Shown: piece after piece, positions 13,821 through 40,860 of the stretch
How the letters are laid out: every line of letters begins with the position of its first letter
How positions within the stretch are numbered: position 1 is the first letter of the stretch
NCBI GenBank assembly: GCA_902550225.1
Contig: CACCYL010000002.1
Coordinates: forward strand, 13,539 to 77,538
Length of the DNA stretch: 64,000 nt
From: an uncultured Alphaproteobacteria bacterium
Lineage (GTDB): Bacteria; Pseudomonadota; Alphaproteobacteria; Methylaequorales; Methylaequoraceae
Direction: 5' to 3'
Translations under genes and position numbers: made by a program
Notes under the pieces: model-generated
Database searches by the model: none
What the model was told of the DNA's origin: nothing
The model's input: only the letters and a program-made list of their open reading frames with translations

Positions 13821-14283
13821 AATTCTCTTTTTTGTTATTTTTGGATTTACCGAGCTGCGATCAAACGAGTTCGCACTCATTCATTCAAAAAATTTTTCTA
13901 ATTTGTTAGTAAAAATAGCCATTGATGATAATACAAAGCAAAAAGGTCTTATGAATATGAAAAAGTTAAACACTAATAATGGGATGCTTTTTATTTACGA
14001 TGTACCGCAAATAGTCAAGTTCTGGATGTACAATACTTTCATTCCATTAGATATAATATTTATTGACGATAGAAACATCATCAGTTCTATAAAAGAGGGT
14101 GTTCCAATGAAAAAAAAATTAATTTCATCTGAAATTAAAATTTCTGCTGTGTTAGAAATACCGAAAGGCTGTGCAAAAAAATTAAAAATTAAGAAAGGTC
14201 AAATTGTTTCTTGGATAATAAAAAAATCAGCTGAAATAAAAAATATTAGATATTTTCATTGTTTAAATTTAAAAGAAAAATAG
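13801..14283 (+). CDS. DUF192 family protein
   Basis: KGLM, GMLF, FWMYNTFIPLDIIF, VLEIPKG. Confidence 0.9.
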   Translation: MRILSYKILFFVIFGFTELRSNEFALIHSKNFSNLLVKIAIDDNTKQKGLMNMKKLNTNNGMLFIYDVPQIVKFWMYNTFIPLDIIFIDDRNIISSIKEGVPMKKKLISSEIKISAVLEIPKGCAKKLKIKKGQIVSWIIKKSAEIKNIRYFHCLNLKEK

Positions 14284-14303
14284 AATAAAATGGGGAAATT
14301 GTT

Positions 14304-14927: not shown

Positions 14928-14935
14928 GTTAAAAA

Positions 14936-17961: not shown

Positions 17962-18006
17962 TAATAAACTATTATGAAACGTTGTCGTTAAAAGTTATTC
18001 ACAGTT

Positions 18007-19344: not shown

Positions 19345-19345
19345 A

Positions 19346-19375
19346 TTAGGTCTTTTTAACTTTTAAAACAGTGGT
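19346..19375 (+). promoter_or_regulatory. Bipartite motif TTAGGTC-N14-AACAGTGGT (copy 1)
   Basis: Same half-sites and spacing recur at 22925-22954, upstream of the paralogous gene. Confidence 0.5.
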
Positions 19376-19400
19376 ATTTCGCCTATAGTTAAAACTGGAT

Positions 19401-22883: not shown

Positions 22884-22906
22884 AGCTCCTAATAAATAGA
22901 GCTTTT
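22882..22906 (+). terminator. Weak hairpin after the first FecR/RTX gene
   Basis: AAAGCTC...GAGCTTT followed by a short T run. Confidence 0.35.
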
Positions 22907-22924
22907 AACTAAATAAATTTCCTT

Positions 22925-22954
22925 TTAGGTCGTAAATATAGCATTAACAGTGGT
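22925..22954 (+). promoter_or_regulatory. Bipartite motif TTAGGTC-N14-AACAGTGGT (copy 2)
   Basis: Matches 19346-19375 in both half-sites and in the 14-nt spacer length. Confidence 0.5.
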
Positions 22955-22963
22955 TCGTGGAAT

Positions 22964-25670: not shown

Positions 25671-27260
25671 ATGAAGTTTTGGTTTCACATATTAAAAGAA
25701 AGTAACTCTCTAAATACTATTCTTTTATTGACTTTTTTTATTACTATAATGGGTTTATTAAGCCCAATTTTTATTATTCACATTTTTAATAGATATATCG
25801 CATTTGGCCTTCAGGGTACTTTGTTTTTTTTATTATCAGGTGCTCTTTTAGTTGCAGTATTCGAGTATATATTTAGGAATATAAGGAGTAAAATTTTATG
25901 TGAAATTCTCATAAATCCAATAAAATTTTTTAAATTAGACCTAATCAAAACATTTTTTGAGAGAGAAAATAAAACATCAAAAAGAAATTTTGTTGAAATA
26001 ATTGATTTCAACAATAATTTTTTTCAATTCATATCACCTAAAGTTCAGTCAAATCTTCTCGACTCAATTTTTGCAATTTTAATTATTATTATTCTTTTTT
26101 TTCTAGACCTTTTATTAGCAACAATTTTTTTAATTCTTGTTATTATTTTCCTGTTATTGCAACAAAGATTAATAAAAAATAAAAATCTAAACTTGGAAAG
26201 ATTAAATTTATCTAAGAATGATAAATTAATAATTAAAGAGATTGGAACTAATCAAGAGCTTTTAAAATCTACTCTAGCATTTAAATATTCTGGATATTAT
26301 CTAGAAAATTACTTAAATAAAAAATTAAAAATCGACTCTTCAACTGCAAATTTTGATGCTCAACAAATTTCCACCACGAGTTTTTTTGTTTTGTTATCAT
26401 CAATCATTACTATTGGATTTGGGAGTATCTTTGTGGTGAATGGAAATCTCTCTATTGGTAGCCTGATAGGATTTAATATATTTGCTACTCGAGCGTTGGG
26501 TACAATTTCATCAGTTCAAAATTCATATTCCATTATTGAGAGAACAAATATGTATCTTAGTGATTGCCAAGATTTTTTTAAAAATTCTAAAAATCGAGTT
26601 GAGGGTATGCAACTTAGTAAAATTATTGGGAATTACAAACTTAAAAATGTAAACTATTCTTTTGATAATGATAATAAGTATATAATTAAAAATTTCTCTG
26701 CTAATTTTAATTCTTCAGAAATTTCAGTTATTAGCGGAGCGAATGGCTCCGGAAAGACCACAATTGCAAAATTGCTCATGGGACTAATTAATCCAGAATC
26801 TGGAGATATTTTATTAGATGAAACTAATTTGGAGAAACTATCATTGCAATGGTATAAGAATCAAGTAGCTTATATACCTGAAGATGTTGAAGTGTTAAAT
26901 TCATCAATTTTAAATAATATTTTAATATCCAACCCTGATCTGAATGAACAAGAGGTAAGTAGACTGCTTCAAAATGTTGGATTAGATAAAGAGTTAAAAA
27001 AATCAGATTTAACAATAACTGATTCTATAAATAAAAATTATTCAAAAGGGATTTTAAAAAAAATACATATTGCACGGTCGATTTCAAAAATCTATCAAAT
27101 TTATATTTTTGATGATCCGTTATTATATCTAGATAAATTAGGTAAAAATATGGTACTTAAATTGATAGCCTCATTAAAAAGAGCTGGAAAAACTGTAATT
27201 TGTTTTTCAGAAGATACTGAAATTATTAAATTAAGTGATAAACAAACTAATTTAGGGTGA
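25671..27260 (+). CDS. T1SS ABC transporter (TMD+NBD) with degenerate ATPase motifs
   Basis: Walker A GANGSGKT; signature YSKGI, Walker B IYIFDD, no switch His (CFSED). Confidence 0.85.
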   Translation: MKFWFHILKESNSLNTILLLTFFITIMGLLSPIFIIHIFNRYIAFGLQGTLFFLLSGALLVAVFEYIFRNIRSKILCEILINPIKFFKLDLIKTFFERENKTSKRNFVEIIDFNNNFFQFISPKVQSNLLDSIFAILIIIILFFLDLLLATIFLILVIIFLLLQQRLIKNKNLNLERLNLSKNDKLIIKEIGTNQELLKSTLAFKYSGYYLENYLNKKLKIDSSTANFDAQQISTTSFFVLLSSIITIGFGSIFVVNGNLSIGSLIGFNIFATRALGTISSVQNSYSIIERTNMYLSDCQDFFKNSKNRVEGMQLSKIIGNYKLKNVNYSFDNDNKYIIKNFSANFNSSEISVISGANGSGKTTIAKLLMGLINPESGDILLDETNLEKLSLQWYKNQVAYIPEDVEVLNSSILNNILISNPDLNEQEVSRLLQNVGLDKELKKSDLTITDSINKNYSKGILKKIHIARSISKIYQIYIFDDPLLYLDKLGKNMVLKLIASLKRAGKTVICFSEDTEIIKLSDKQTNLG

Positions 27261-28839: not shown

Positions 28840-29196
28840 TTATCCTCCAGCTCGTTTGATGACATCTTTAGGTATATAAGTCGCAACTCTGTCAAGTTTA
28901 ACCATCCACATTATACCTTTTCCAGGTGTATCAAGATTTCCTGCTAAAAACATTGATTCAAAGACTCTGTTCGATTGTTCTTTAGAAACTATAATTCTTA
29001 TTATTTCTTTTTGTTCATCTATAGTTACTCCAAGAAGTCCCATTCTATCTCTAATGCCTGTACCCCTGGCATAATTAATTGTTGCACCTTGCGCTCCAAC
29101 ACTGGTGGCAGCATCTATGATTTTATCGGCTAGACCACTTTCAACAACACAAGTGATTAAAAAAACGTCTGTTAAATAAGTGATATCTCTGGCCAT
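28840..29196 (-). CDS. PII-family regulator
   Basis: GAQGATINYARGTG, KEIIRIIV, LDTPGKGI. Confidence 0.88.
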   Translation of the reverse strand: MARDITYLTDVFLITCVVESGLADKIIDAATSVGAQGATINYARGTGIRDRMGLLGVTIDEQKEIIRIIVSKEQSNRVFESMFLAGNLDTPGKGIMWMVKLDRVATYIPKDVIKRAGG

Positions 29197-29208
29197 AATT
29201 TTTTCCTT

Positions 29209-30909
29209 TTAGTTATTTTTTTGTTTAAATTGTATATATAGTCCCATTAGGAGTACAGCAAGAATTGGACAAATACTTGCCATAGATAGAATACCAAAAC
29301 CTTCAGTGGCGGATACAGCATTTCCTAGACCCAGACCCATAGCCAGAACAAGTGGTACTGTTACCGGGCCGGTTGTGACTCCAGCACTGTCCCAGGCGAC
29401 ATTAACAAATTCTTCAGTTGAAAAGTAAGTTAAAACAATTGCAAGAAGATAAAGTGGTATTAAAACGGTTGCTAAGTCAAAAGCAAATACAATTTTTCCA
29501 ACACCTAAGGCTATACCAAATGCAACACCCCCAGCAACACTATACATTAACATTGACTTTTTGAAAGCACCATTGGTAAGCTCTTGAACTGTCAAACCAA
29601 GGGCATTAAGTGCGGGCTCAGCAAGCGTTGCTCCAAATCCTAAGAGCCAAGCGAAAAGAATTACTATAGTTAAACCCAATAATTCGTTGTAAATTGGTGA
29701 TACTTCACTTATTGGGACTTCCATAAAGGCGGCAGGAAGATTGGTTCCAGCTTGTCCACCTATAGCTCCTAAACCATATGTGAGTCCTATATTGAAGACA
29801 CACATCCCAACAATGGACAAAGTTAACCCATAAGTTGTTATCATATTATTAGGAAGTTTAGATCTAAGGATTACAAAAAGCACAATCATTAAAAATATCA
29901 CAAGTGGGAGTATTGCACGAACTCCTCCAATAATTTCAACATACGGGGTTTGTGACCACTTAGAAACCTCTCCTATGGTCATATCTGAAGCCATACTAGT
30001 CGAAGCAATTATTTCCTCAACTGAGATTGTCTGAGAAACATGTATAGCAAGAATCAGAACAGCGATAATTGGAAATAATGAAGCCATTGTAACGACGCCG
30101 AAACCAGAAAGAGATGAATCTCCTTTACCAGCTGATGCTGCAATTCCAATACCTAGTGATAGCACAAGAGGTACAGTAACTGGTCCAGTTGTAACAGCAC
30201 CACAATCCCAAGCTAATCCGAGAATAGTTCTTAAATCAGGATTACTCCATACATATGCAGTAAGAATTATTGTTGGTGCAAGAGCTGCATAAATCATAGG
30301 TTTTAGAGACCAACCTTTGACAAACCTTATTGTTCCAATGATGGCTGCTAATCCAACACCAGCACCGACCATTACAACTAAGGTTTCACTTCTATTGTTT
30401 AGTATCTCATACAGATACGGTGCGTCCTGAGGATTTATTGACGAACCAAATGCTTTGAGTGCTCCAATAGCTGGTTCCGCATAAGTTACTCCCACCCCAA
30501 GTATTCCAATAATAATTAAAACAAGAACCATTGGTGCTTTTTTTGGTAATGTGTCACCAATTACATTGCCAAATGGCATTAAACCGGTTTTAAGACCTTC
30601 CATAAAAATTGCTAGGCCTATTATTACTGCAATTAATCCTAGACAAATTGTTGTCGCTGAAGAGATCGGTTGTCTTAAAATTAAAAGCTGAAACAGAAAT
30701 AAATATGCTGCAAGTGGAACAACAGCTTTAATTTGTTCCATAACTCTAGAAATCGTGTAAGGTGCTAACAGAGTAAGTGCCTTGGCAGGAGATACTTTAA
30801 TTTTCTGAGGCTTTAGTGATTTTCCTTTAGCTGCCTTCGGCGTAAGAAGATTATAACTTAAAGATTTATGATTTATCTCTGATTCGTGAATGTAATCGGA
30901 ATATTTCAT
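29209..30909 (-). CDS. DUF1538 family membrane protein (two fused domains)
   Basis: AEPA and AWD(C/S)xxVTTGPVTVP and GFG motifs each occur twice; adjacent to PII-like genes. Confidence 0.9.
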   Translation of the reverse strand: MKYSDYIHESEINHKSLSYNLLTPKAAKGKSLKPQKIKVSPAKALTLLAPYTISRVMEQIKAVVPLAAYLFLFQLLILRQPISSATTICLGLIAVIIGLAIFMEGLKTGLMPFGNVIGDTLPKKAPMVLVLIIIGILGVGVTYAEPAIGALKAFGSSINPQDAPYLYEILNNRSETLVVMVGAGVGLAAIIGTIRFVKGWSLKPMIYAALAPTIILTAYVWSNPDLRTILGLAWDCGAVTTGPVTVPLVLSLGIGIAASAGKGDSSLSGFGVVTMASLFPIIAVLILAIHVSQTISVEEIIASTSMASDMTIGEVSKWSQTPYVEIIGGVRAILPLVIFLMIVLFVILRSKLPNNMITTYGLTLSIVGMCVFNIGLTYGLGAIGGQAGTNLPAAFMEVPISEVSPIYNELLGLTIVILFAWLLGFGATLAEPALNALGLTVQELTNGAFKKSMLMYSVAGGVAFGIALGVGKIVFAFDLATVLIPLYLLAIVLTYFSTEEFVNVAWDSAGVTTGPVTVPLVLAMGLGLGNAVSATEGFGILSMASICPILAVLLMGLYIQFKQKNN

Positions 30910-30946: not shown

Positions 30947-31414
30947 TTATTCAACATGACTTGTTGACTTCTCTAATCTGTAAAGAATTTGCTTTGTTAT
31001 TTTTTTAATTATTTGATTCTCAGACTCTATAATCTCATCTATTTCATCATGAGAATAATGTACATTTTGATACTCATTTCTTTTAGCAAGTTCTTTACAT
31101 AAATTTAAAATTACTTTTTGTGCGGCCTTTGATCCAGAATTAATTAGTTCATCAAGATTTTCTTTACTTATAGATATCAACTCTGTGGATTGACTTGAGG
31201 TAATGGTTGCGCTTCTGTTTTGTTGTAAAATTAAAGCCATTTCACCAAAAACCTCTCCATCTCTCATAGACCCAACTTTTTTTCCATCAACTAATACGTC
31301 CAGCGATCCAGAAACTATCATGTAAGCTTTATCGCCTTTGTCGCCTTGATTAAAGAGCGTCTCGCCCTCTAACATCAAAACTTTTGTTGTTTTTCCGTGA
31401 CTTATCTCTTTCAA
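30947..31414 (-). CDS. Stand-alone cyclic-nucleotide-binding protein
   Basis: LFNQGDKG, FGEMALILQQNRSAT phosphate-binding cassette; no HTH evident. Confidence 0.9.
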   Translation of the reverse strand: MKEISHGKTTKVLMLEGETLFNQGDKGDKAYMIVSGSLDVLVDGKKVGSMRDGEVFGEMALILQQNRSATITSSQSTELISISKENLDELINSGSKAAQKVILNLCKELAKRNEYQNVHYSHDEIDEIIESENQIIKKITKQILYRLEKSTSHVE

Positions 31415-31851
31415 GAAAATATCCTTTGAGATAATCTATAGTGAATCTGAAGCGCTAAAGCTCTTATTACGTTGGGAGAGTCCTTAGTTAGTTTTACAAG
31501 ATCAGCTTTGGTAATTGGAAGTTTTTGGTTATCTGATTTTCCTAATTCCTTAGACATTTCATTAATTACTTTATGAAGATCAATGTTAGAGGATAATAAA
31601 ATAGCTTCCAACGCCTTTCTTTTTATTTCAACAATTTCACTTGGTACAATTGCTTTTATGCTCGCAGTTCTGTTTTCATTTAGAATTAAAGACAATTCTC
31701 CAAAGATTTCACCTGTTTCAATTTTTCCTATCTTTTTTCCTTCAATTTCTGCAACTAGTCCACCTGAAATAACTAGAAAAGCTGTTTCTCCTTTTTCGCC
31801 CTCTCGAACAATATATTGATCTGGAAGAACTCTTATTTTTTTTAAACCCAT
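31411..31851 (-). CDS. Stand-alone cyclic-nucleotide-binding protein
   Basis: IVREGEKG, FGELSLILNENRTAS; paralog of 30947. Confidence 0.9.
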   Translation of the reverse strand: MGLKKIRVLPDQYIVREGEKGETAFLVISGGLVAEIEGKKIGKIETGEIFGELSLILNENRTASIKAIVPSEIVEIKRKALEAILLSSNIDLHKVINEMSKELGKSDNQKLPITKADLVKLTKDSPNVIRALALQIHYRLSQRIFS

Positions 31852-31866
31852 TTAAACCTAATTTTT

Positions 31867-34242
31867 TTATTTAGAGGTTGCGACAAAAACACCATCCCAA
31901 TCTTTTGGGGGAGGATACTTTTTAAATTCATTAATTCTTTCTGTCATCATTTCATAGTAATCTTTCATTAAATTTTTACAAAGTGTTTTTGCCTGAGTCA
32001 TTTCCTCGACAGCATCTTTCCAATTTTGATTAAAATAATGATTTAATACATTTTTATGCTTTTTTTCAAGATTTTTGAAATCAACACTATTTTTAAAACT
32101 TGGATCACCAAGTAAACAAAAAATTGATACAGCTTCTTTTTTTCCTTTTACTGCTAGCATATCAAGTTGGAGTGTAGCAAAAGTATCTTTAACAGCATCG
32201 TTTGTTTCTTGCCCAATAACTGTTTTAACTCCATAACCTTTTGATTGACCTTCAAGACGTGATGCTAGATTTACTGCGTCTCCCAGTACTGAATAGTCAA
32301 ACCTTTGATCCGATCCCATATTTCCAACAACACAACCTCCGGTATTTAGTCCAATTCCAATTTTTAATTCCAAAAAATCTTTATTTTCTGACTTCGCTTC
32401 TTGCTCTCTGATATCGTTAAGTTCTTTTAGTGCTTTATGCATACTTAATGCTGCTTCACAAGAAACTTGCTCATGTTTATCAACATCTATAGGTGCATTC
32501 CAAAAAGCCATAATACAATCTCCCATATATTTATCGATTGTTCCGTTTTTATTTATGATTTCATTAGTAAGAGGTGTTAAAAATCTATTTATAAGTTTTG
32601 TTAGGCCTTGAGGATCTGATTTAAAAGCTTCTGAAATTGTTGTAAATCCTCTTACATCACAAAAAAGAAATGTCATTTTTTTTGTTTCTCCACCCAAAAC
32701 TAATTTATCAGGATCTTCAGCTAATTGTTCCACTAAAGCGGGAGATAGATATTGAGAAAATGCACCCCTTATTTGTTTTTTCTCATTGGCATCACGTAAA
32801 TAGTTTGCAAAGGTGTTACTAAAATAAATTACAAAAGTTGTTACACCTGCAAAGGTTGGATCAAATAAAGTTTTATGTTCAGTAAATAATCTTACACTAA
32901 TATAAAATGCTGAACTTATTATGGTTACAAGTGATGAAATATTTACAATTGGACCAAACTTTAATGCAGATACTGTGATAAATAATGCAAGCAAAATTGT
33001 AAAGAGTGCTTCATAAAATTTCATATTTGCACCAGATTTCAAAAAAGGTGATCCTGAAATTTTAACTTTGTTTTTTTCAATTATTGCTTCTTCTTCACTT
33101 AAACCTTTTTTTAATGCATCTTTATAAACTTTTTCAGAATTTTTTGTGGAAGTATAATAAAGAATTGCTGAAATGACTGTATCAATGAGATTTGCATGAA
33201 TTTCGACACCTGGCATTCTTTCATCGACTGGAGTGGGTCTAATATCCTTTAACCCAGTGGCCGATGTGCCTAATATACCAAGTTTTCCTTGTAATCTATC
33301 TTTGCCGACCCTTCCTTTAATTATATCCACTGCACTTACATAATACCTTGATTTGCCTTCTTTAACTTTTCCAGCATCTGAATCACCATAATAAATCCAC
33401 ACTCTACCATTCTCATCAGTCGGAATAGCAGCATTACCAATAGCTTTAGTTTGAATTATTATTTCTTTAATTCCCGTCAAACCTGTCCTAGTGGCAATAC
33501 TATTTCCTTGAAACGCAACCCTTATCATATCAAGCCCAAGAGTTGGTCTGATTTCACCTGCAACATTTGATATTAAAGGTACTCTTCTAATAATACCATC
33601 TGGTTCTTGTGCAACTGAAACTGTACCAGACCCAGAAGCAGCTTTTTCAAACTCTGTCACATTAGCAAGCAATCCAGGATAAGATATCAACCATTCCTTT
33701 GGATTTTTACCTTTGCCAATAAAAACTTTTACAGATGAATCGTTTATATCATTTCTGTTTGCATCACCTTCAATATCTAATCCCGAGTGACCAATTATTA
33801 CAGGGAACTCATTCATAGCTTCCATTGCTAAAAACTCATTAGAGGGAAGTTCACTTAGTAGTTTGGCAATATTTGGGTTTCGTTTTTCTAAATCTTGAGA
33901 AATCAAATCGGGTGAAGTCCTGTCTTTTTCTGCAAATAGAACATCTAGGCCTAAAACGAGCATGCCCGATTCTTTAGATTTTTTAAAAAGATCAGCAAGT
34001 ACAGTTCTTGGCCACGGCCATTGACCAATTTCTCTAAGAGATTTTTCATCAATATCTACTATTACGGAATAAGTTTGACCATCCGTAGACCTTGGGAATT
34101 TTTTTTGAAGAACATCAAAATACTTTAGTCTAAGAACTTCTACTACTTCAGGATCAGCTATACGAACCAAACCAAAAAGAATAGCCATTAATACAGAAGC
34201 AATAGTAACAATTAGTCTAAAACTTAGCTTAAATTTGATCAT
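31867..34242 (-). CDS. CHASE2-domain adenylate cyclase
   Basis: IVDIDEKSL..GQWPWPR, DGIIRRVPL, GVEIHAN, 3 TM segments, FCDVRGFT, DKYMGDC, YSVLGDAVNLASRLE. Confidence 0.95.
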   Translation of the reverse strand: MIKFKLSFRLIVTIASVLMAILFGLVRIADPEVVEVLRLKYFDVLQKKFPRSTDGQTYSVIVDIDEKSLREIGQWPWPRTVLADLFKKSKESGMLVLGLDVLFAEKDRTSPDLISQDLEKRNPNIAKLLSELPSNEFLAMEAMNEFPVIIGHSGLDIEGDANRNDINDSSVKVFIGKGKNPKEWLISYPGLLANVTEFEKAASGSGTVSVAQEPDGIIRRVPLISNVAGEIRPTLGLDMIRVAFQGNSIATRTGLTGIKEIIIQTKAIGNAAIPTDENGRVWIYYGDSDAGKVKEGKSRYYVSAVDIIKGRVGKDRLQGKLGILGTSATGLKDIRPTPVDERMPGVEIHANLIDTVISAILYYTSTKNSEKVYKDALKKGLSEEEAIIEKNKVKISGSPFLKSGANMKFYEALFTILLALFITVSALKFGPIVNISSLVTIISSAFYISVRLFTEHKTLFDPTFAGVTTFVIYFSNTFANYLRDANEKKQIRGAFSQYLSPALVEQLAEDPDKLVLGGETKKMTFLFCDVRGFTTISEAFKSDPQGLTKLINRFLTPLTNEIINKNGTIDKYMGDCIMAFWNAPIDVDKHEQVSCEAALSMHKALKELNDIREQEAKSENKDFLELKIGIGLNTGGCVVGNMGSDQRFDYSVLGDAVNLASRLEGQSKGYGVKTVIGQETNDAVKDTFATLQLDMLAVKGKKEAVSIFCLLGDPSFKNSVDFKNLEKKHKNVLNHYFNQNWKDAVEEMTQAKTLCKNLMKDYYEMMTERINEFKKYPPPKDWDGVFVATSK

Positions 34243-35963
34243 GGTTCTGCAAAACTATTACCGAGGGTTCTTATAAGTGGATAAATAAAATACGTAATTA
34301 ATCTTCTTTGCCCAACTCTAAATTTTCCTGAGACTTTCATTCCTGGCATTAAATTAAATCCTGGAGGAATATCTTTTAACTCATTTTCTGTTATTTGAGC
34401 TCTAGCCCTATAAAAATTTCCAGGTTTTCCATCGACGTCTTTATCAATTGTGTCAGCAGAAACATAAATGAGCTTTCCTTTTAACTCACCGTGTTTTTGT
34501 GCTGGAAGGGCATTGAGTTGAATTTTAACAGATGTATCCGGAATCAGTTTACTAATATCAGAAGGATCAACATCAAAAACAGTTAATAACTCCACACCTG
34601 TTGGTACCAATGTAACAACACTTTTACCTTGTGTTATTACTGCTCCAGGATATAGAGAATGAAGGTCTAGAATCATACCGTCAGAGGGCGCTCTTACTAC
34701 AACATCAGTTTGTTGTCTTTCAAGTTTTTTTACATCTTCTTGTAGCGACATTCTTTGATCCTCTAATCCAACAAGCTCATCGTTTATTCCTCCAAAAAAT
34801 TGACTGTTATATTCTTTTCTATTAGATTTTAATTCGCTTAGTTTATTGCTTGTTTTTGTGAATTCTTTTTCTAAAGATAGTCTTTTGTTTTTCTCAGCTA
34901 AAACTTGTGATTCTGCTACTAGATCAAGTTCAAATAACTCCAACTTTGAATCTTCTAGCTGCTTTTGTATATCAAGTTGTTCCTTTATAAACTTCAAATC
35001 GTCTTCTGTGGAACCTATTTGTTGATCTAAGGAAGCAATCTTTGCTAAATATTGGTCTTTTTTATCTTTGAAGATTCTGCTTTGTCTTTCGTCATTTGGA
35101 TTTGCAACCGAAACATTATTCCTCAACAATGACTGCTTTTTTAGTCTATCAATTTTTGAATTAACAACTGAAAGCTGATAATCAAGTTTCATTTTATCGG
35201 CTCTTTGAAGTGTAGCATCGAATGTTACGAGTGGATCTCCTTGATTGACACTTTCACCTTTTTTAACAAGTATTTCTTTAACAACAGAATTATAGTTTGA
35301 TTGAACCTCTACATTTGGAACAACGGTAGTTATTTTTCCAGAAGCAGAAATTGTAGTATCAATTTCAGAAATAGTGCCCCAACTAATTAAAAATAAAACT
35401 AGGAAACCAAATGAATAAACTGACATTTTAACAGAACGAGGTACCTGTTTTGTTTTAATTCTATCAATGTCGTCATCAAATTCATCTAATAATTCACTCA
35501 TCATTTTTTTCTTTGATCTATTTTCTTTTTCTTCCTCAGTTAAAACCTCTTCTTGATCTTTGTTATTTTCATTTTCATTGCCAGATTCGAAAGCATCTAC
35601 AGATAATTTTTCGTTTGCATTTCTGGCGTAGCTTGCAAGCTGCTGCATCATATTAAAAGCGGTTTGTGGAGAGTTTTTGAGATAGCCTAGTAAAGCATTT
35701 TGATCAATTTCTTTTACCGTTGTCTCAACTGTCGCTCTTGCCATCGCACTTCTTGGTTGTTTGTCAATTAATGCCATTTCTCCAAACAATGCACCTTTTT
35801 CAAGTATTGATAAAGTGACGTATTCGTCACCGTTGAATTTGCATACCTCTATTTTTCCTTTTACTATTTGATAGGCATAGTCTCCAACTTCACCTTCTCT
35901 AAAAAGTACATCACCTGCAGCTAAATTTCTAACAGCCGGTTGTATATTTTTTTTATCAGCCAT
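34239..35963 (-). CDS. HlyD family membrane fusion protein with N-terminal cNMP-binding domain
   Basis: LFREGEVGD...FGEMALIDKQPRSA, then TM, coiled coil, RAPSDG, LMPGM. Confidence 0.92.
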   Translation of the reverse strand: MADKKNIQPAVRNLAAGDVLFREGEVGDYAYQIVKGKIEVCKFNGDEYVTLSILEKGALFGEMALIDKQPRSAMARATVETTVKEIDQNALLGYLKNSPQTAFNMMQQLASYARNANEKLSVDAFESGNENENNKDQEEVLTEEEKENRSKKKMMSELLDEFDDDIDRIKTKQVPRSVKMSVYSFGFLVLFLISWGTISEIDTTISASGKITTVVPNVEVQSNYNSVVKEILVKKGESVNQGDPLVTFDATLQRADKMKLDYQLSVVNSKIDRLKKQSLLRNNVSVANPNDERQSRIFKDKKDQYLAKIASLDQQIGSTEDDLKFIKEQLDIQKQLEDSKLELFELDLVAESQVLAEKNKRLSLEKEFTKTSNKLSELKSNRKEYNSQFFGGINDELVGLEDQRMSLQEDVKKLERQQTDVVVRAPSDGMILDLHSLYPGAVITQGKSVVTLVPTGVELLTVFDVDPSDISKLIPDTSVKIQLNALPAQKHGELKGKLIYVSADTIDKDVDGKPGNFYRARAQITENELKDIPPGFNLMPGMKVSGKFRVGQRRLITYFIYPLIRTLGNSFAEP

Positions 35964-35969: not shown

Positions 35970-38141
35970 TTATCCGGCCTTTTTTAAAGATTTAATTTTG
36001 TTCTCTACGCCTAAAATAGACATTTGCTTATTATACGTTTGACCAAAATAACCTGAAATTTGTCTTAATTCTTCAAAAGAACCCTGTTGAGATATTTTCC
36101 CCTTTTCAAGCACAAAGATTTTGTTACAAAGTCGAAGATGCCAAACCCTGTTTGATACGATAATTATCGTTCTACCAAGTGCAATATCTGATAGTGCATC
36201 GTATAATTTTATTTCACTGTCAACATCAAAACCTGTGAAAGCATCATCAAGTATCATGATACGAGGGTTTCTAATAAGTGCTCTGGCAATTGCTAGTTTT
36301 TGTCTTAAGCCAGTTGCAAGATTTGTGGCATTTTCCTCTAAGAATGTTTCATATCCATCAGGATAAGACTCAATTTCTTCATGTGCGAAAACTTTTTTCG
36401 CAGCCCAAGTTATCCTGTCCATGGAGGAATTTGGCATTGCACTCGCTATTGTTTCTCTTATTGTTCCTGGAAAAAAATAACTATCTGTTCCAACCAATGA
36501 AACCTGTGATCTTACATGACTAAGATCCAGTAAACGTAGATCTATATTATCCAGAGCCACGATACCAGCCTGGGGTCTATATAGACCCTGAATTAGTTTT
36601 GCGATAGTACTTTTTCCACATCCACTTTTACCTGTAATACCAATTATCTGTCTTGGATTAATTTCAATATCAATATCATTTAATACTTTTGTATTATCAT
36701 CGTATCCAAACTCAACATTTTTAAAACTAACTTGTCCCATAAGTTGAGGTTTTTGGCCTCTGACAGTTGTTTCGGAGTTTGCATCCACTATTCCTGATAT
36801 AATCTGAAGAGATTGAACTAATTTTGTTATTTCTGTTTTAAGTGTAACTAGATCAATTATTGGCTTTGATACTCTGCCGGCAAGCATATTAAAACCTACT
36901 AAAATCCCAGCTGAAAGAGATCCAGAAAATACAAGATGCACCCCTACAAAAATAACCATTGCAGTCATAAGTTGATTTATGGTTGATGAAATATTGTTTA
37001 AAACTGCTGACTTTTTTTGCATTTCTTCATTTGCAATAATATAATTTGCTTCCAAATCTCTCCACTGATCTTTCAAATTAGGTTCAAGAGCAAGTCCCTT
37101 AACATTCTCAATTCCGTTAACAGCAACAGAAATAAATTCTTGTCTTTTTGATTCAGCCTTACTTAAACCAGCGAGCGAATCTCTTTGTTTTTTTGAGTAA
37201 AACATTGATGCTAAAGCTCCTAATATACTAAAAGAAAACACAACAATAAATAGTAATGGGCTATAAAAAAATAGAATGGGAACAAAAACAAGTAAACTAA
37301 TTGAGTCCAGTGCTGTTGAGAAAACTTTTTGCGTCAGAAGGCTTTTGATCTGCGATATTTGGCCTGTGAATCTCAAAAAAGTAGCTGATTCTTTATGAAA
37401 CCTTTGCATTGGTAAAGCAATTAATTTTTCAAAAACTTTAACTGAAAGTTTCGCCTCAACCTTTTGTGAGAAAAAATCAAGAAGATATGACTTTAAATAC
37501 CCGAGTATTCCGTTAAATACATAAGCAACAACTACACCTGAAGTTATAACATATAAAGTTGAATAAGCTTCATAGTTTACAACCTTATCCAAAACCAACA
37601 TCATGAAAACAGCTGGTATAACTGCGAAAATGTTTAAAATCAAAGCTACAATTACAACTTGAAACATAACAGACTTGTTTCTAAAGGATTCACCTATTAG
37701 CCATCCAATTTTTAATTCACTGTCTTCTTCAAATTTTTTAAGTTTGGCTTTAAGAAGTATTACTTCTCCGTTCCAGCCTTTTTTTAATTCTTTTAAATTA
37801 ATTTGTTGAGGTTTCGGACTGGTAACACCAGTATCAAGACATAAAATTGACTTATCATCATCTTTTTCACCCTGAATAACTCTTAAAGCTATTATGTATC
37901 TTCCATTTTTAAGTCTTAAGATCTGTTGTTTTTTAGACAAGAGCTTTACTAGTTCCTTCTCGCTAATTTTGGTTGCTTTTGCTTTTAAATCAAAGGATTG
38001 AGCTAAGTCACACATTTCAGAGGTTCTAAGTTCTCTATCCTCAATTTGAAATCTTTCTGGAATATCATTTGGACCAATATGAACACCTAATTGTCTTGCA
38101 ACTAGAATAATTGATTTTTGAGAACCTCGCATCGCTTCCAT
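35970..38141 (-). CDS. T1SS ABC transporter with C39-like domain and degenerate ATPase motifs
   Basis: N-terminal C39-like region ending WNGEVIL with no evident catalytic Cys; Walker A GKSGCGKS; LATGL signature; Walker B IMILDD; IVSNR switch. Confidence 0.9.
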   Translation of the reverse strand: MEAMRGSQKSIILVARQLGVHIGPNDIPERFQIEDRELRTSEMCDLAQSFDLKAKATKISEKELVKLLSKKQQILRLKNGRYIIALRVIQGEKDDDKSILCLDTGVTSPKPQQINLKELKKGWNGEVILLKAKLKKFEEDSELKIGWLIGESFRNKSVMFQVVIVALILNIFAVIPAVFMMLVLDKVVNYEAYSTLYVITSGVVVAYVFNGILGYLKSYLLDFFSQKVEAKLSVKVFEKLIALPMQRFHKESATFLRFTGQISQIKSLLTQKVFSTALDSISLLVFVPILFFYSPLLFIVVFSFSILGALASMFYSKKQRDSLAGLSKAESKRQEFISVAVNGIENVKGLALEPNLKDQWRDLEANYIIANEEMQKKSAVLNNISSTINQLMTAMVIFVGVHLVFSGSLSAGILVGFNMLAGRVSKPIIDLVTLKTEITKLVQSLQIISGIVDANSETTVRGQKPQLMGQVSFKNVEFGYDDNTKVLNDIDIEINPRQIIGITGKSGCGKSTIAKLIQGLYRPQAGIVALDNIDLRLLDLSHVRSQVSLVGTDSYFFPGTIRETIASAMPNSSMDRITWAAKKVFAHEEIESYPDGYETFLEENATNLATGLRQKLAIARALIRNPRIMILDDAFTGFDVDSEIKLYDALSDIALGRTIIIVSNRVWHLRLCNKIFVLEKGKISQQGSFEELRQISGYFGQTYNKQMSILGVENKIKSLKKAG

Positions 38142-38173
38142 GACAATATAATATATTAATTTTTGATTTAATC

Positions 38174-38213
38174 AAAAAAAAAACCCCCTTAGAAACACCA
38201 AGAGGGTTTTTTT
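38174..38213 (-). terminator. Rho-independent terminator of the 38232-39218 gene
   Basis: Minus strand AAACCCTCTTGG-loop-CTAAGGGGGTTT followed by a long U tract. Confidence 0.85.
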
Positions 38214-38231
38214 ATTTATAAAGGTATAGGT

Positions 38232-39218
38232 TTAGACTACCTCACCACCATCATTTGGATCGTCAGGAGGTGGAGGCATATCTGCGGGCATATCACCTGG
38301 CATTGGCCCTGGATCTCCCGGAGGAGGTCCTTCTGGACCTTGATGTGCTCCCGCATCGTCCATGTGTGTATGCATGTCACCCATTCCATCCGGAGGAGGT
38401 GGAGGCATTCCATCGCCGTCCATGTCCATGCCTGGAGGAGGTCCCATTGGATCACCCGGAGGAGGTCCGCCTGGTTCTCCTGGAGGAGGTCCACCAGCTG
38501 GTCCACCTTCACCAAATAATGGATCTGGTCCTTCACCACCTGGAGGTGGTGGAGGCATTCCATCTCCATCCATATCCATGCCTGGAGGAGGTCCATCTGG
38601 TCCCATTCCGCCTGGACCCATATCACCTGGAGGAGGTCCGTCTGGTCCGCCGGCCATATCACCTGGAGGAGGTCCGTCTGGTCCCATTCCGCCTGGACTC
38701 ATATCACCTGGAGGAGGTCCATCTGGTCCCATTCCGCCTGGACCCATATCACCTGGAGGTGGTCCGTCTGGTCCGCCGGCCATATCACCTGGAGGAGGTC
38801 CACCTTCACCTGGAGGAGGTCCATCAGGAGCTCCTGGTAAATCACCAGGAGGCGGAGGTGGAGGAGCATCAGCACCTGGTCCCATGTCAGGAACAGGAGG
38901 CATATCAGGACCAAAATCCGAACATGGTCCGTCAGGACAACCATCTAAATGGGTGTCCATAACATCAGAGACAGCGTCAAAAGCCTCTTCTGCACTTGCA
39001 CCAGGGTTTTCAGCCATAAAATCGTTGTATGCACCTTGAGCTGTGTCAGCCATATTCATCATAACTTCGGGGGGCATACCTCCATCAGTCATAACGTCCA
39101 TTGCTGCAGTCATACATTCGTCAAAACTACCTCCACCTTGCATTACGTCAAACGCAGCAGAGCCTGCAGCGTCGCCGAGATCCATAAGTTCAGGAGGCAG
39201 TGTAGTAAAATCTGCCAT
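38232..39218 (-). CDS. Very acidic Pro/Gly/Asp/Met-rich repeat protein, candidate T1SS cargo
   Basis: AAGGAA RBS at 39225-39230, own terminator, located between tolC and ABC; GPDGPPPGDM repeats. Confidence 0.8.
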   Translation of the reverse strand: MADFTTLPPELMDLGDAAGSAAFDVMQGGGSFDECMTAAMDVMTDGGMPPEVMMNMADTAQGAYNDFMAENPGASAEEAFDAVSDVMDTHLDGCPDGPCSDFGPDMPPVPDMGPGADAPPPPPPGDLPGAPDGPPPGEGGPPPGDMAGGPDGPPPGDMGPGGMGPDGPPPGDMSPGGMGPDGPPPGDMAGGPDGPPPGDMGPGGMGPDGPPPGMDMDGDGMPPPPPGGEGPDPLFGEGGPAGGPPPGEPGGPPPGDPMGPPPGMDMDGDGMPPPPPDGMGDMHTHMDDAGAHQGPEGPPPGDPGPMPGDMPADMPPPPDDPNDGGEVV

Positions 39219-39330
39219 AATAAATTCCTTTATTAAATTGTAAGATTAAATTGTGTTAATACTTTAAAAAGTCGATACAGTCTATTTTAATCATATTTTA
39301 TTTTTCAATTTAAGCAAGCTTTAATTAATT

Positions 39331-40656
39331 TTATTTTTCAATTGTTTCAAAGTTTAAAATTCCGCATAATTTTAATAATTCAAAGGATGAAATAATAAGT
39401 TGATATTGTGCGTTTACTAAATTTGATTCAGAATCTGTTAATTCTTTTTGTGCATCTAGAATTTCCAATGTTGTTCTGGTACCAACACTAGCTTCTTTAG
39501 TTACTCCCTCAACTGCCATTAAATTTGACTCAACTGAAACCTCAAGGGAATCTATACTTGATTTGGAACTTTGTATTTTCTTCCATGCCGAATTAATTTG
39601 AAATTGTAAGTCAAGTTTTTTTGTCTCGATGGATTTAATAACTGAAAGTGCAGAATCTTTTGATTTTTCTAAATTTAACAAATTATGTCCTTTGTTAAAC
39701 AATGGAACCGTAACATTGGCAGTTACTGAGTATGAATCTGTTCTTTCAACTGTCCTTGATGGATCAAGTGATTTTCCTACTGAACCAGACAAAGAAAATT
39801 CTGGTGCAAAATTTAAATTATTTTTTCTTACATCCAATTTTGAGTTTATAAGTTGTAATTTTAATTTTCTATAATCTGGGTTCTTTTCCAAACCTGTTTG
39901 TATTGAATCTTCCAAAGATTTTGGAAGTTTTGGTATTTGCCCAAATTTTAACCAATCTTTTGGATTGGCGTCGACAATTTGGGCATTATTGGAATCAAAC
40001 CATTTGATATCTGGAGCTCTACCGACAATAGTTTTAAAATCAGAAATTGAAATTTCTAAGTTATTTTCAGCTTCTATTCTCTTTGAAGTAGCACCTGCTA
40101 ATCTTGCTTTAGCTTGAAAAACGTCAGTTTTAGTAACGTCTTTAAATTCGAATCGCTTTTCAGCAGCATTTAGTTTTTTTTCAAGAGTTTCTTCGTTCCT
40201 TTTTGAAACATCTAAAAGAAAATAATCCTTTAAGACAGTATAATAAGCTCTACTAGCTTTAAACAAAACATCTTGGACTGTGGCATAAAAGGTTAACTTT
40301 GCGATGTTCAAGTTATTTTTAGCTTGCTTGAAATTTATAGCTTTTGTGTAACCTAGAGGTTGAGATAAATCTACGTCGAACGTAGTTGGGTTGAAAGCGC
40401 TATCATTAATTCTAGATGTATCGGGATTACTTTTTGTAATTTTCCTTCCTTGTGAAGCTGAAAAATCAAGGGATGGAAGAAAATCTGTTTTTGAAATTTT
40501 TAAATCTTTTTCTGAAATTTTTAGTTCAGTTTTACTTTTTTCAATGTCTGGATAAAACTTATATGCATCTTTCAAAACATTGGAGAGTTCTTCAGAAATT
40601 GAAATAACGGGAAAAAATATCAATGCTAAGATAACCAGATTTAATTTGGATTTCAC
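39331..40656 (-). CDS. TolC family outer-membrane channel
   Basis: Signal peptide, FLPSLD, GTRTTLEILDAQ. Confidence 0.92.
   Translation of the reverse strand: MKSKLNLVILALIFFPVISISEELSNVLKDAYKFYPDIEKSKTELKISEKDLKISKTDFLPSLDFSASQGRKITKSNPDTSRINDSAFNPTTFDVDLSQPLGYTKAINFKQAKNNLNIAKLTFYATVQDVLFKASRAYYTVLKDYFLLDVSKRNEETLEKKLNAAEKRFEFKDVTKTDVFQAKARLAGATSKRIEAENNLEISISDFKTIVGRAPDIKWFDSNNAQIVDANPKDWLKFGQIPKLPKSLEDSIQTGLEKNPDYRKLKLQLINSKLDVRKNNLNFAPEFSLSGSVGKSLDPSRTVERTDSYSVTANVTVPLFNKGHNLLNLEKSKDSALSVIKSIETKKLDLQFQINSAWKKIQSSKSSIDSLEVSVESNLMAVEGVTKEASVGTRTTLEILDAQKELTDSESNLVNAQYQLIISSFELLKLCGILNFETIEK

Positions 40657-40783: not shown

Positions 40784-40860
<77 letters not shown>

Follow-up and report, generated by a model that had tools for sequence, protein, structure and literature searches.

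The window, a stretch of DNA of 64,000 nucleotides, carries on its minus strand a 328-aa open reading frame (38232..39218 in the ORF list, stop codon included) within a row of genes for a type I secretion system (T1SS); all features described below are on the minus strand unless stated otherwise. On one side lies the gene for a TolC-family outer-membrane channel (39331..40656; Pfam OEP, 2.8e-56; TIGR01844, 213 bits, below the cut-off of 225) and on the other that for an HlyB-type ABC transporter (35970..38141; Pfam), which bears a C39-like domain at its N-terminus, has degenerate ATPase motifs and can be aligned with E. coli HlyB (7SGR, E = 1.6e-99) along its entire length, including the N-terminal domain. 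The row continues with an HlyD-family adaptor fused to an N-terminal cyclic-nucleotide-binding domain (cNMP::HlyD, 34239..35963; cNMP_binding, 1.3e-19; HlyD_3; TIGR01843, 219.7 bits, above the cut-off of 208.65), a CHASE2-sensor class III adenylate/guanylate cyclase (31867..34242; Pfam CHASE2, 2.5e-46; Guanylate_cyc, 1.2e-19) and two small stand-alone cyclic-nucleotide-binding proteins (31411-31851 and 30947-31414, spanning 30947..31851; identified by Pfam and syntenic in related loci). It ends with genes for a DUF1538 membrane protein and a P-II-like protein (28840..30909; Pfam, synteny), which we assign to the secretion system tentatively and from gene order only. Our literature search found no paper that joined cyclic-nucleotide-binding with T1SS terms.

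Records of relatives belong to TMED127/Methylaequorales, described as lanthanide-dependent methylotrophs in PMC12542740. The order P-II, DUF1538, cNMP, cNMP, CHASE2 cyclase, cNMP::HlyD, HlyB, candidate cargo, TolC is kept in eight of 11 TMED127 loci (seven of the ten loci fetched and one more), and these eight span four genera. Two further loci were uninformative, one lying at a contig end and the other being a weak match, and in a genome designated G018 no T1SS genes accompany the candidate cargo gene over the 17 kb retrieved. The ABC transporter deviates from the canonical ATPase motifs at four sites, with the Walker B Glu changed to Asp, the H-loop His to Asn, and the Q-loop and signature altered as well; these four sites are replaced in all eight TMED127 orthologues. 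The transporter of a second family that bears the candidate cargo (represented by genome G399) has its signature and H-loop replaced, while two cNMP::HlyD systems without the cargo feature canonical ABC motifs.

The 328-aa protein contains no Lys, Arg, Ile or Trp and is rich in Pro (86 residues, 26.2%), Gly (74, 22.6%), Asp (48, 14.6%) and Met (35, 10.7%), so that residue counts bear out the composition given in the initial annotation; its net charge is approximately -61 and its pI approximately 2.6. By comparison, a crude set of 1166 host ORFs of at least 100 aa contains 10.5% Lys and 9.7% Ile. Within it, the protein ranks lowest in Lys plus Arg, highest in both Met and Pro, and lowest in side-chain nitrogen per residue (0.046; the median is 0.354). 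Under proteome frequencies, the absence of all four residues over 328 aa has a log10 chance of about -40. The two RTX-bearing proteins of the neighbouring T1SS account for most of the next-lowest genome-wide values for Lys plus Arg and for side-chain nitrogen. No Pfam or NCBIfam family model, including those for RTX, was matched by the protein.

Composition, codon usage, orthologues and natural variation all identify this ORF as a genuine gene. Local GC is 0.515 at the ORF and approximately 0.31-0.35 in its flanks, an increase that arises because codon positions 1 and 2 are GC-rich (0.80 and 0.61), with position 3 at 0.26. All 20 of the natural variants listed are synonymous third-position changes in this frame. 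The possibility that there is no gene here, with the open frame reflecting repeat composition or with a plus-strand ORF (38255-38962 or 38362-39039) being the real one, draws on the fact that both strands of the repeat DNA are open and that antisense ORFs also occur in relatives. We regard it as negligible, given that the non-repetitive N- and C-terminal parts are conserved in the minus frame only, that the N-terminal domain has a paralogue family, that a ribosome-binding site and a terminator are present on the minus strand, and that 14 of the 20 listed synonymous variants fall outside the longest plus-strand ORF. The initial annotation had raised absence of transcription and expression of the opposite strand as objections to its own proposal; RNA-library contigs from four marine metatranscriptomes lie on the gene, and the position of those 14 variants also counters the opposite-strand alternative. 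Its placing of the gene inside a type I secretion cluster was confirmed by Pfam, NCBIfam and synteny.

Structure prediction with AlphaFold2 on 20 sequences divides the protein into a four-helix N-terminal domain (residues 9-92, 38943..39194), a tract of variable repeats predicted to be disordered, and a C-terminal region of approximately 50 aa that is conserved. Helices are predicted at residues 9-27, 32-45, 50-70 and 76-92, with block pLDDT values of 88-95; by eye, the domain resembles an internal duplication of a helix-loop-helix unit. Foldseek returned no match in the PDB at E up to 0.001, and the best ESM Atlas score of 0.77 was uninformative. A VIA wide fold search was topped by the pollen allergen Phl p 5b (Z 8.8, rmsd 3.4, 92 residues), followed by dynamin stalks and SRP54 N-domains; matches of this kind are within the range common for helical bundles, and we take the domain only as a predicted four-helix bundle. 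A 111-aa paralogue of this domain is encoded on another contig (31% identity; E = 5e-25 with a 20-sequence profile) and has an ordinary Lys content, with 10 Lys/Arg in its 111 residues, and no secretion context.

The Pro/Gly/Asp/Met linker and repeat tract (residues 96-270, 38409..38933) has block pLDDT values of 40-65 and no predicted secondary structure, and approximately 70% of the whole protein is predicted to be disordered. Among relatives, this tract has a mean pairwise identity of 0.24-0.37 and an indel fraction of 0.51-0.62. The protein has five copies of PPPG[DE]M, and the underlying DNA repeats with a 45-nt period over 4.5-5.4 copies (38581-38801). Two GMDMDGDGMPPPPP motifs provide DxDxDG sequences at residues 215-220 (38559..38576) and 265-270 (38409..38426); shuffles of residues 101-328 contain a mean of 0.19 such motifs (P = 0.019 for two or more). 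They do not form the EF-hand/lanmodulin loop DxDxDGxxxxxE, as each runs into MPPPPP with no Glu at position 12, and neither flanking helices in the AlphaFold2 model nor a Pfam EF-hand match were found for these regions. DxDxDG occurs in 12 of the 20 aligned members and in 38 of 93 database clusters. The repeats, the two DxDxDG motifs and an MHTHM cluster noted in the initial annotation are all present, although neither DxDxDG nor His is conserved across the family. The accompanying statement that RTX nonamers are absent needs a small correction: the protein is essentially non-RTX, with no match to PF00353 (HemolysinCabind) at E up to 0.01, but a lone nonamer, GGEGPDPLF (residues 227-235, 38514..38540), does fit the consensus and opens a DPLFGEGGPAGG block that is conserved in most TMED127 members. 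Three GGMGPDGPP copies fit the nonamer consensus at their first six positions only. GGxGxD was considered as an RTX feature and dropped, since it is enriched here (4 against 0.68 expected, P = 0.004) but occurs in only six of the 20 aligned members; the enrichment is a by-product of the repeat unit in the host species.

The last 52 residues (277-328, 38235..38390) are the most conserved part of the protein within the genus, with a mean pairwise identity of 0.74 and an indel fraction of 0.09. Of the 20 aligned members, 16 terminate in VV or IV preceded by an acidic residue, and the protein studied here ends in ...DDPNDGGEVV. MHTHM occupies residues 282-286; the two Met of this block are invariant in the 20 members, while His is missing from five of them. 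Type I secretion signals lie at the extreme C-terminus and, to our knowledge, no sequence rule defines them; the conservation of this region makes it a candidate uncleaved secretion signal. The N-terminus is acidic and lacks a hydrophobic stretch, which agrees, by eye, with the earlier observation that there is no signal peptide. A double-glycine leader was rejected because the GG sites of the N-terminal domain are unconserved and because the N-terminal domain of the ABC transporter aligns with HlyB, while peptidase-type transporters align only from residue 155. A complex prediction for the C39-like domain of the transporter (residues 1-150) with residues 215-328 of the candidate cargo scored 0.00 and counts neither way.

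The gene's own ribosome-binding site and strong terminator, both proposed in the initial annotation, were located. AAGGA (39226..39230) precedes the ATG by 7 nt, and AAAGGA is conserved in 12 aligned upstream regions. Further upstream, an element of the form (TA)GACTGTATYGACTTT..AAAGTATTAACACAA (39251..39284) is invariant or nearly so in all 12 upstream regions, which represent three genera and whose flanks diverge; it occurs once in the window, features no covariation across these regions, and may represent a -10 element with a 5' leader or an operator. A promoter scan found 16 sites where 16.1 are expected by chance. Between this gene and the ABC transporter gene lies a predicted intrinsic terminator (38177..38213), whose hairpin has a folding energy of -20 kcal/mol (z = -3.8), with none of 200 shuffles folding as well.

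Abundant expression, also predicted from the sequence, is documented for an orthologue. AG-892-F10.CDS.1472, from a congeneric single-cell genome, averages 11,071 TPM (6,184-23,335) across 35 Sargasso surface metatranscriptomes (PMC12542740, Table S5), a figure for a protein approximately 70% identical rather than for this allele and from mapping that possibly lacked strand information. The same table gives 357 TPM for the ABC transporter gene, 114 for TolC and 36.5 for the paralogue of the N-terminal domain, so the orthologue stands approximately 31-fold above the ABC gene and 97-fold above TolC. It is not named in the text of PMC12542740 and is labelled 'Efflux ABC transporter' in its table; the paper draws attention to two 'unknown' genes, whose averages are 12,095 and 18,147 TPM. 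Part of the stretch is present in 20 RNA-library runs from 13 studies. Summed contig depth in four RNA runs was approximately 10-890 over the bins of the gene and 0-13 over those of its neighbours, but these runs were chosen with the gene itself, so depth cannot rank genes, uncovered parts prove nothing, and the expression ranking rests on the published table. A diel signal, with orthologue TPM at 00-04 h approximately twice that at 16 h, was read as compositional, since the ABC gene varies in parallel (r = 0.65) and xoxF accounts for 16-57% of afternoon TPM.

Orthologues of 279-405 aa are found in 14 of 15 genomes of the genus and in 23 of 36 genomes of the family. A word-index search with residues 1-110 found nothing, and the family was reached via the paralogue, a full HMMER scan and genome searches. 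The scarcity of Lys and Arg is general, with two Lys and no Arg summed over the 20 aligned members and 49 of 93 database clusters entirely without either residue. A single-sequence query had found no match in 397 genomes outside the family, but restriction to TMED127 was dropped when synteny and a 12-sequence profile revealed a homologue in G399, which belongs to a different alphaproteobacterial family and has 56% GC (hhalign, 98.2% probability, E = 6e-14). The gene for this homologue immediately precedes those for HlyB and cNMP::HlyD and adjoins that for TolC; the protein contains 5% Met, and Ala replaces the Met of the TMED127 repeats. The hallmarks of the family are the absence of Lys and Arg, strong acidity, predicted Pro/Gly-rich disorder, an N-terminal helical domain and a conserved C-terminus. 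A likeness seen by eye in a neighbouring 1160-aa protein (hairpin 'AAREAFETALAAGLSPEEAM', PGDF repeats) was not significant by BLASTP, hhalign or hmmsearch. Separately, a giant FecR/RTX protein of G399 matches positions 55-89 of the N-terminal domain profile (E = 5e-4), the only statistical hint of such a relationship. A possible polycation partner, the 34%-Lys protein CDS.257, was also set aside, as it looks like a helix-turn-helix with a Lys-rich tail and nothing links it to the candidate cargo.

On balance, we consider it probable that this protein is a dedicated non-RTX T1SS cargo that acts as an extracellular polyanion. TolC, the HlyB-type transporter with its C39-like domain and the cNMP::HlyD adaptor would export it, and export may be gated by cAMP; the CHASE2 cyclase and the two cyclic-nucleotide-binding proteins are encoded in the same gene row. 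The chain would leave the cell in an unfolded state, led by its C-terminus, whenever cAMP allows, and outside the cell it would be a soluble or surface-associated polyanion binding multivalent cations, with a repeat tract whose length drifts through repeat gain and loss. The gene has its own candidate promoter region and ribosome-binding site, and we propose that its mRNA far exceeds that of the transporter because the terminator follows it. Export is supported by synteny, with tolC and the ABC gene flanking this gene in two families, while the low side-chain nitrogen that the protein has in common with the neighbouring RTX cargos fits a protein lost from the cell. On the other side, substrates of ABC transporters with a C39-like domain normally carry RTX repeats and this protein is RTX-free by Pfam, the G018 gene lacks nearby T1SS genes, the degenerate ATPase motifs mean that the machine may not work like HlyB, and the DxDxDG and His residues are not conserved. 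It is doubtful, although conceivable, that the loss of Lys and Arg is an adaptation to electrophoretic export, in which the chain of about -61 would be pulled outward by the inside-negative potential. The ABC transporter, lacking fast ATP hydrolysis, would then be an ATP- and cAMP-gated conduit, and positive residues would act as a brake and be purged even from the folded N-terminal domain; the non-secreted paralogue of this domain retains its 10 Lys/Arg.

Retention of the protein at the surface as a coat or brush, with the N-terminal domain stalled in or near TolC or bound to the envelope and the tract displayed, is unlikely. LapA-type retention modules and the RsaA S-layer anchor provide models for such an arrangement, and a layer of this kind might repel particles, phages or grazers or concentrate cations. 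Work on HlyA established that export proceeds C-terminus first, and the confidently folded N-terminal domain would thus exit last; in addition, relatives differ greatly in repeat number, a common trait of exposed proteins, expression is very high, as it is for S-layer proteins, and neighbouring giant T1SS proteins weakly match the LapA retention module (4e-5 and 6e-5). The protein itself, however, matches no retention-module or S-layer family in NCBIfam or Pfam, the scanned ORFs of the window included no LapG/LapD-like genes, and mRNA levels 31- to 97-fold above those of the orthologous transporter genes would saturate one-to-one channel plugging. The converse proposal, that the protein stays inside the cell as an abundant cytoplasmic polyanion, for instance buffering cations, or regulating or plugging an ABC 'sensor' with degenerate ATPase motifs, appears decidedly improbable. 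The loss of canonical hydrolysis motifs from the transporter, the low abundance and non-secretory context of the paralogue, and the absence of RTX repeats are in line with it, but the position of the gene in two families, its low side-chain nitrogen and the fact that conservation within the genus peaks at the extreme C-terminus, where T1SS signals lie, all point towards export.

Two metal-binding roles were also weighed. As a secreted collector of lanthanides or other trivalent metals for the XoxF methanol dehydrogenase, comparable to HasA but for rare-earth ions, the protein would suit a lineage reported in PMC12542740 to be obligately lanthanide-dependent; according to that study, genes for a lanthanophore, lanmodulin or lanpepsy were not found in the lineage, and highly transcribed unknown genes are suspected. 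The host genome encodes a PQQ alcohol dehydrogenase (669 bits, above the cut-off of 480), and all five cargo-bearing genomes carry such a dehydrogenase, against 95 of the 401 class genomes sampled, although these five represent only two independent lineages and G273, a congener of G399, has the dehydrogenase and no cargo match. The two cNMP::HlyD systems without cargo are in dehydrogenase-free genomes. Carboxylate density is extreme and DxDxDG motifs are present, but these lack the position 12 Glu and flanking helices and are missing from eight of the 20 aligned members. On general chemical grounds, 10 mM Ca2+ would probably keep picomolar lanthanides from binding to a disordered carboxylate polymer. 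Furthermore, the cluster has no lut gene, no TonB-dependent receptor domain was detected in the scanned ORFs of the window, our literature search found no description of a T1SS-secreted lanthanide binder, and TPM for the cargo orthologue falls at the afternoon peak of xoxF, as that of the ABC gene does and as is expected of a compositional measure. Taken together, we judge this role unlikely. Binding of Cu(I) or Ag(I) through Met and His, as put forward in the initial annotation and in the manner of CopA/PcoE/SilE-type motifs, is very improbable: the Met fraction is the highest in the genome, the two Met of the MHTHM block are invariant, and this block holds overlapping MxxH and HxxM spacings, which are the motifs of Cu(I)/Ag(I) binders, yet a quarter of the aligned members (five of 20) have no His, the G399 homologue has Ala in place of repeat Met, the repeats have no MxxM or MxM spacing, and no copper-handling genes were found in the cluster. 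As His, Met and DxDxDG vary across the family, the arguments for Cu/Ag binding and for Ca2+-binding loops rest on features that do not define it.

In PMC12542740, TMED127/Methylaequorales is reported to lead the lanthanide-dependent methylotrophs of oligotrophic surface oceans in transcriptional activity. Under the favoured reading of a dedicated T1SS cargo, a genome of approximately 1.5 Mb would maintain a secretion module of nine genes, under signal control, for a single orphan protein and, if exported, this protein would steadily supply seawater or the cell surface with a nitrogen-poor, sulfur-rich polyanion that trypsin cannot cut. Lacking tryptic sites, it would escape standard metaproteomics. 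The protein is a candidate for the missing metal-scavenging strategy of TMED127 cells, and its locus lends itself to the study of type I secretion without RTX repeats, of adaptor gating by cyclic nucleotides and of what ABC exporters do once their ATP sites have degenerated.

Several known systems share individual features with this locus. The HasA hemophore is a small, folded, heme-binding non-RTX protein that is exported by a T1SS via a C-terminal signal, scavenges a scarce cofactor and is encoded beside its cognate TonB-dependent receptor. By analogy, our protein may likewise be a non-RTX T1SS substrate with a C-terminal signal, but its cluster has no receptor gene and the protein has no defined binding pocket. 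Lanmodulin, a periplasmic protein, contains four EF-hands in which loop position 12 is Glu and helices flank the loop; Pro occurs near its DxDxDG-type loops. Lanmodulin and our protein are both acidic proteins of lanthanide-using methylotrophs with Asp-rich DxDxDG-type sequences and nearby Pro; the differences are that the DxDxDG of our protein leads straight into a Pro run without flanking helices and is not universal among its relatives. The HlyA-type substrates of E. coli HlyB/HlyD/TolC are also encoded beside a C39-like-domain ABC transporter, an adaptor and TolC, and are also acidic with a conserved C-terminus and no N-terminal signal. Here, as in the hly operon, a terminator lies between the cargo and ABC genes and leaves cargo mRNA in excess. 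In contrast to them, the protein described here lacks an RTX domain, lacks Lys and Arg and is largely predicted to be disordered, and its secretion system differs from HlyB/HlyD in having an adaptor with a cyclic-nucleotide-binding domain, a sensor cyclase and degenerate ABC ATPase motifs. The tandem-repeat proteins of Ehrlichia are acidic as well. No sequence relation was found between them and our protein, but TRP32, TRP47 and TRP120 of Ehrlichia chaffeensis are alphaproteobacterial repeat proteins that are exported by a T1SS and are not classical RTX toxins (PMC3417381). They are effectors of an intracellular pathogen, whereas the protein described here comes from a free-living planktonic methylotroph and is built largely from Pro, Gly, Asp and Met.

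The window has a GC content of about 30%, and the rise to 51.5% at positions 38001-39000 is due to a single minus-strand ORF (38232..39218) encoding a 328-aa protein, hereafter the cargo protein. Residue counts agreed with the composition reported in the initial annotation: Lys, Arg, Ile and Trp are all absent, and the protein is rich in Pro (86), Gly (74), Asp (48) and Met (35). The probability of finding none of K/R/I/W over 328 residues is approximately 1e-40. Among a crude set of 1166 ORFs (>=100 aa) of its genome (Lys 10.5%, Ile 9.7%), the cargo protein ranks lowest in K+R content and in side-chain nitrogen per residue (0.046 versus a median of 0.354) and highest in Met and Pro contents. 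GC at the three codon positions is 0.80, 0.61 and 0.26, so the amino acid sequence dictates the high GC, whereas the third position tracks the AT-rich genome, which is the look of a native coding frame. The repeats, two GMDMDGDGMPPPPP motifs and the MHTHM cluster were all found as described, as were an RBS (AAGGA, with the ATG 7 nt further on) and a 3' terminator (-20 kcal/mol, z = -3.8), both on the minus strand. The proposed absence of RTX nonamers is nearly right: Pfam detects no RTX repeats in the protein, but there is a single match to the consensus (GGEGPDPLF), and GGMGPDGPP, which occurs three times, fits the first six consensus positions only.

The repeat DNA of this locus has open frames on both strands, so an ORF on the opposite strand could in principle be the real gene. 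This is very unlikely, because four lines of evidence favour the minus frame. In an alignment of 20 relatives, this is the only frame in which the N- and C-terminal non-repeat parts are conserved, and a 111-aa paralogue of the N-terminal ~100 residues (the N-domain) is encoded elsewhere in the genome, on a different contig (31% identity; E = 5e-25 against a 20-sequence profile). The RBS and terminator are also located on this strand. Finally, contigs from RNA libraries of four marine metatranscriptomes provide 20 variants within the CDS among those listed (19 sites; 233 further differences lie beyond the listing), all of which are synonymous third-position changes in the minus frame, and 14 of these 20 fall outside the longest plus-strand ORF.

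To assess expression, we used Table S5 of PMC12542740, in which 35 Sargasso Sea surface metatranscriptomes are mapped to a congeneric single-cell genome; row CACMWI010000012.1, minus, 3349-4455 (368 aa) corresponds exactly to the coordinates of the cargo orthologue. This gene (CDS.1472) has a mean of 11,071 TPM (SE 818; range 6,184-23,335; >10,000 in 19 of 35 samples), compared with 357 for the ABC gene and 114 for TolC, which substantiates the predicted abundant expression for the congeneric orthologue. Means for the adaptor fragment and the divergent Sel1-repeat gene are 122 and 491 TPM, respectively. An apparent night-time maximum of the cargo gene is shared with the ABC gene, and we read it as compositional, reflecting the afternoon peak of xoxF. 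The text of PMC12542740 highlights two 'hypothetical' genes as >10^4 TPM (means 18,147 and 12,095) and makes no mention of the cargo gene. This silence may be due to mislabelling in Table S5 (rows CDS.1471-1473), where the name 'Efflux ABC transporter' is given to the cargo orthologue, and the actual ABC gene appears as 'Sensor and efflux transporter (apxIB)'. The 12,095-TPM gene, CDS.257 (L072:1002-1619, plus strand, G009 contig C1), encodes a 34% Lys protein that appears to consist of KLKK-type repeats preceded by an HTH-like N-terminus, and no link between this protein and the cargo polyanion was found. Parts of the window's own stretch are present in 20 RNA-library runs from 13 studies, with zero-difference contigs in at least two runs; these contigs give neither levels nor strand.

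AlphaFold2 modelling from the 20-sequence alignment predicted four helices (residues 9-27, 32-45, 50-70 and 76-92) with block pLDDT values of 88-95, whereas the remainder of the protein has pLDDT ~40-70 and no secondary structure. Fold searches returned only generic helical bundles (top VIA match, Z 8.8), and Foldseek gave no match at E <= 0.001. Within the genus, mean pairwise identity and indel fraction are 0.74 and 0.09 for the C-terminal 52 residues, 0.59 and 0.05 for the N-domain, and 0.37 and 0.51 for the repeat tract, and orthologues span 279-405 aa. The 20 aligned members contain two Lys and no Arg overall, have net charges of -46 to -79, and mostly (16/20) end in an acidic residue followed by VV or IV. 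In outline, the head of the cargo protein is folded, the polyanionic tract that follows is disordered and free of K/R, and the tail is conserved. DxDxDG is present in 12 of the 20 members, and His is missing from five.

A profile search of a 5.8-billion-protein collection identified 93 clusters; every one is unnamed or 'hypothetical' and lacks Pfam domains, 49 are K/R-free and 38 feature DxDxDG. Most of the multi-Arg clusters have tails such as '...GTSSR', which look like the result of frameshifted assembly. P0063, P0109, P0119, P0142 and similar proteins, which are metagenomic and encoded on very long contigs, have Arg/Trp/Ser-rich tails of this kind. Such tails are the product expected of a frameshift in repeat DNA, which suggests that cargo-family gene calls are often wrong in long-read assemblies. 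When all 1.84 billion representatives were scanned with HMMER, just 49 proteins were recovered at E <= 0.001, so the family is small, though not confined to TMED127 (the order 'Methylaequorales'). We found no family model, solved structure or published description of the protein.

The type I secretion system (T1SS) setting of the cargo gene was also borne out. A TolC gene (39331-40656, same strand) comes first, followed by the cargo gene, its terminator and then, all on the minus strand, genes for a HlyB-type ABC protein (35970-38141), a HlyD adaptor whose N-terminus carries a cyclic-nucleotide-binding domain (34239-35963), a CHASE2 adenylate/guanylate cyclase (31867-34242), two small cNMP-binding proteins and, at the end of the row, a fused double DUF1538 membrane protein and a P-II-like protein (28840-30909). 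The ABC protein aligns end to end with Escherichia coli HlyB (7SGR), N-terminal domain included (E = 1.6e-99), whereas the peptidase-type transporter PCAT1 can be aligned to it only from residue 155. The entire gene order is retained at seven of ten loci fetched around orthologues, two of the ten being uninformative for synteny, and at one further locus, across four genera; in G018, no T1SS genes accompany the cargo gene within 17 kb. Na+(Li+,K+)/H+ antiporter activity has been reported for DUF1538 pairs (UmpAB; PMC5484666), and the cluster may accordingly link export of the polyanion to the exchange of cations for protons.

Upstream of the cargo gene, a 34-nt block (39251-39284, minus strand; (TA)GACTGTATYGACTTT..AAAGTATTAACACAA) that contains a small palindrome, ACTTT/AAAGT, is invariant or nearly so in 12/12 relatives while its flanks diverge. 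No covariation was detected among these relatives, and the block could be a promoter, leader or operator. A tRNA-Pro(UGG) gene (40784-40860, plus strand) is flanked by tolC and the divergent Sel1-repeat gene. It occupies the same place in 6/6 TMED127 loci checked, is absent at the G399 locus described below, and RNA contigs pile up over it. The only other tRNA-Pro gene in the genome assembly is of the GGG type; the cargo protein is 26% Pro, with CCT used 42 times and CCA 37 times.

A single-sequence N-domain query identified the family in 14/15 genomes of the genus and 23/36 of the family, but in 0/24 genomes representing other families (one each) and 0/397 of a class sample outside the family. 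The apparent restriction to TMED127 was overturned by an adaptor-guided search. A query with the fusion of HlyD to a cyclic-nucleotide-binding domain (cNMP::HlyD) matched 13/401 class-sample genomes at E <= 1e-40, and three matches outside TMED127 (G399, G176 and G295) span the fused N-terminal domain. G399, from another family (56% GC, 2.5 Mb), encodes a 253-aa protein directly upstream of the ABC gene and adjoining TolC. This Asp/Pro/Gly/Ala-rich protein has 1% K+R, a 'DMAHMDDAMSDHMDH' block and an acidic C-terminus, and is homologous to the N-domain (hhalign 98.2%, E = 6e-14). A 12-sequence N-domain profile recovered 5/401 genomes, comprising four from TMED127 and G399. The cargo gene is conserved and highly transcribed, and in two families it is placed between tolC and the T1SS ABC gene.

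The second T1SS arm of the window is headed by a class III cyclase with two GAF domains (14936-17242, plus strand), so each secretion arm has its own cyclase; it continues with an OEP (18007-19344), two FecR/RTX proteins, an ABC protein and HlyD. One of these, a 1160-aa FecR-domain protein with RTX repeats (19401-22883, plus strand), accounts for the other GC-rich part of the window (53-56% at 20001-22000). GPPIGPDGEPL and GPGGPGDF repeats make up the middle third of this protein, whose K+R content is 1.8% and whose helix hairpin 'AAREAFETALAAGLSPEEAM' resembles an N-domain half-unit by eye, although not significantly. Low side-chain nitrogen is common to the cargo and the neighbouring RTX cargos, which would fit thrift in proteins lost from the cell. 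In G399 both modules are adjacent (L061, G399:C57:7000-25000): a FecR/RTX giant, two TolC genes, the cargo homologue, a HlyB with a C39-like domain and cNMP::HlyD, with no CHASE2 cyclase beside them. The giant matches N-domain profile positions 55-89 (E = 5e-4). The stand-alone 111-aa paralogue (L002:1375-1710, plus strand, G000 contig C9) adjoins an aminotransferase gene and a beta-barrel-like gene and is conserved in 56 database clusters. Its Lys/Arg content is ordinary (the near-identical L017 copy has 7 K and 3 R), and its orthologue averages only 36.5 TPM.

We infer that the conserved tail of the cargo protein acts as a secretion signal and that the chain leaves the cell unfolded; cAMP from the CHASE2 cyclase would gate the adaptor, and the terminator would fix the cargo-to-machine ratio. 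Compared with HlyB, the ABC protein has an intact Walker A, but its Q-loop Gln is replaced by T/A/S, LSGGQ by L[AS]TGL, the Walker B Glu by Asp and the H-loop His by Asn, and these four changes are present in 8/8 TMED127 orthologues. The G399 transporter has an LSECL signature and an H-loop Ser but retains the Gln and Glu, whereas all motifs are canonical in the G176 and G295 cNMP::HlyD systems, which lack this cargo. Combined with the complete loss of positive residues from the cargo, this degeneracy allows a reading in which the membrane potential, by pulling on a purely anionic chain, supplies most of the driving force for export, and the transporter is a conduit gated by ATP and cAMP. We consider this improbable. 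In the second ABC protein of the window (25671-27260, plus strand), Walker A is likewise intact and the Q-loop Gln, LSGGQ, Walker B Glu and H-loop His are all replaced, so motif loss may be a lineage trait that is not tied to the cargo.

Outside the cell, the secreted product would function as a polyanion, and we rank a soluble or loosely attached cation-binding polyanion first, followed by a retained surface brush, a lanthanide collector serving XoxF and a Cu(I) binder. The third of these suits the biology of TMED127, whose members are described as ~1.5-Mb obligate methylotrophs that require the lanthanide enzyme XoxF5, and the authors suspect a role for abundant unknown genes in metal scavenging (PMC12542740). 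The window genome encodes a PQQ alcohol dehydrogenase of this kind (669 bits against a cut-off of 480), as do all five cargo-bearing class-sample genomes, compared with 95/401 overall. However, these five genomes represent two lineages only, no linked receptor or lut gene was found, and the DxDxDG motifs lack conservation and are not EF-hands.

The cargo would be exported by a system that works like HlyA-type T1SSs, but differs in that its cargo does not qualify as an RTX protein and in the addition of cyclic-nucleotide control. The nearest functional analogues of the cargo include HasA, as well as retained adhesins and S-layer proteins. They also include the non-RTX repeat cargos described in Ehrlichia (PMC3417381).
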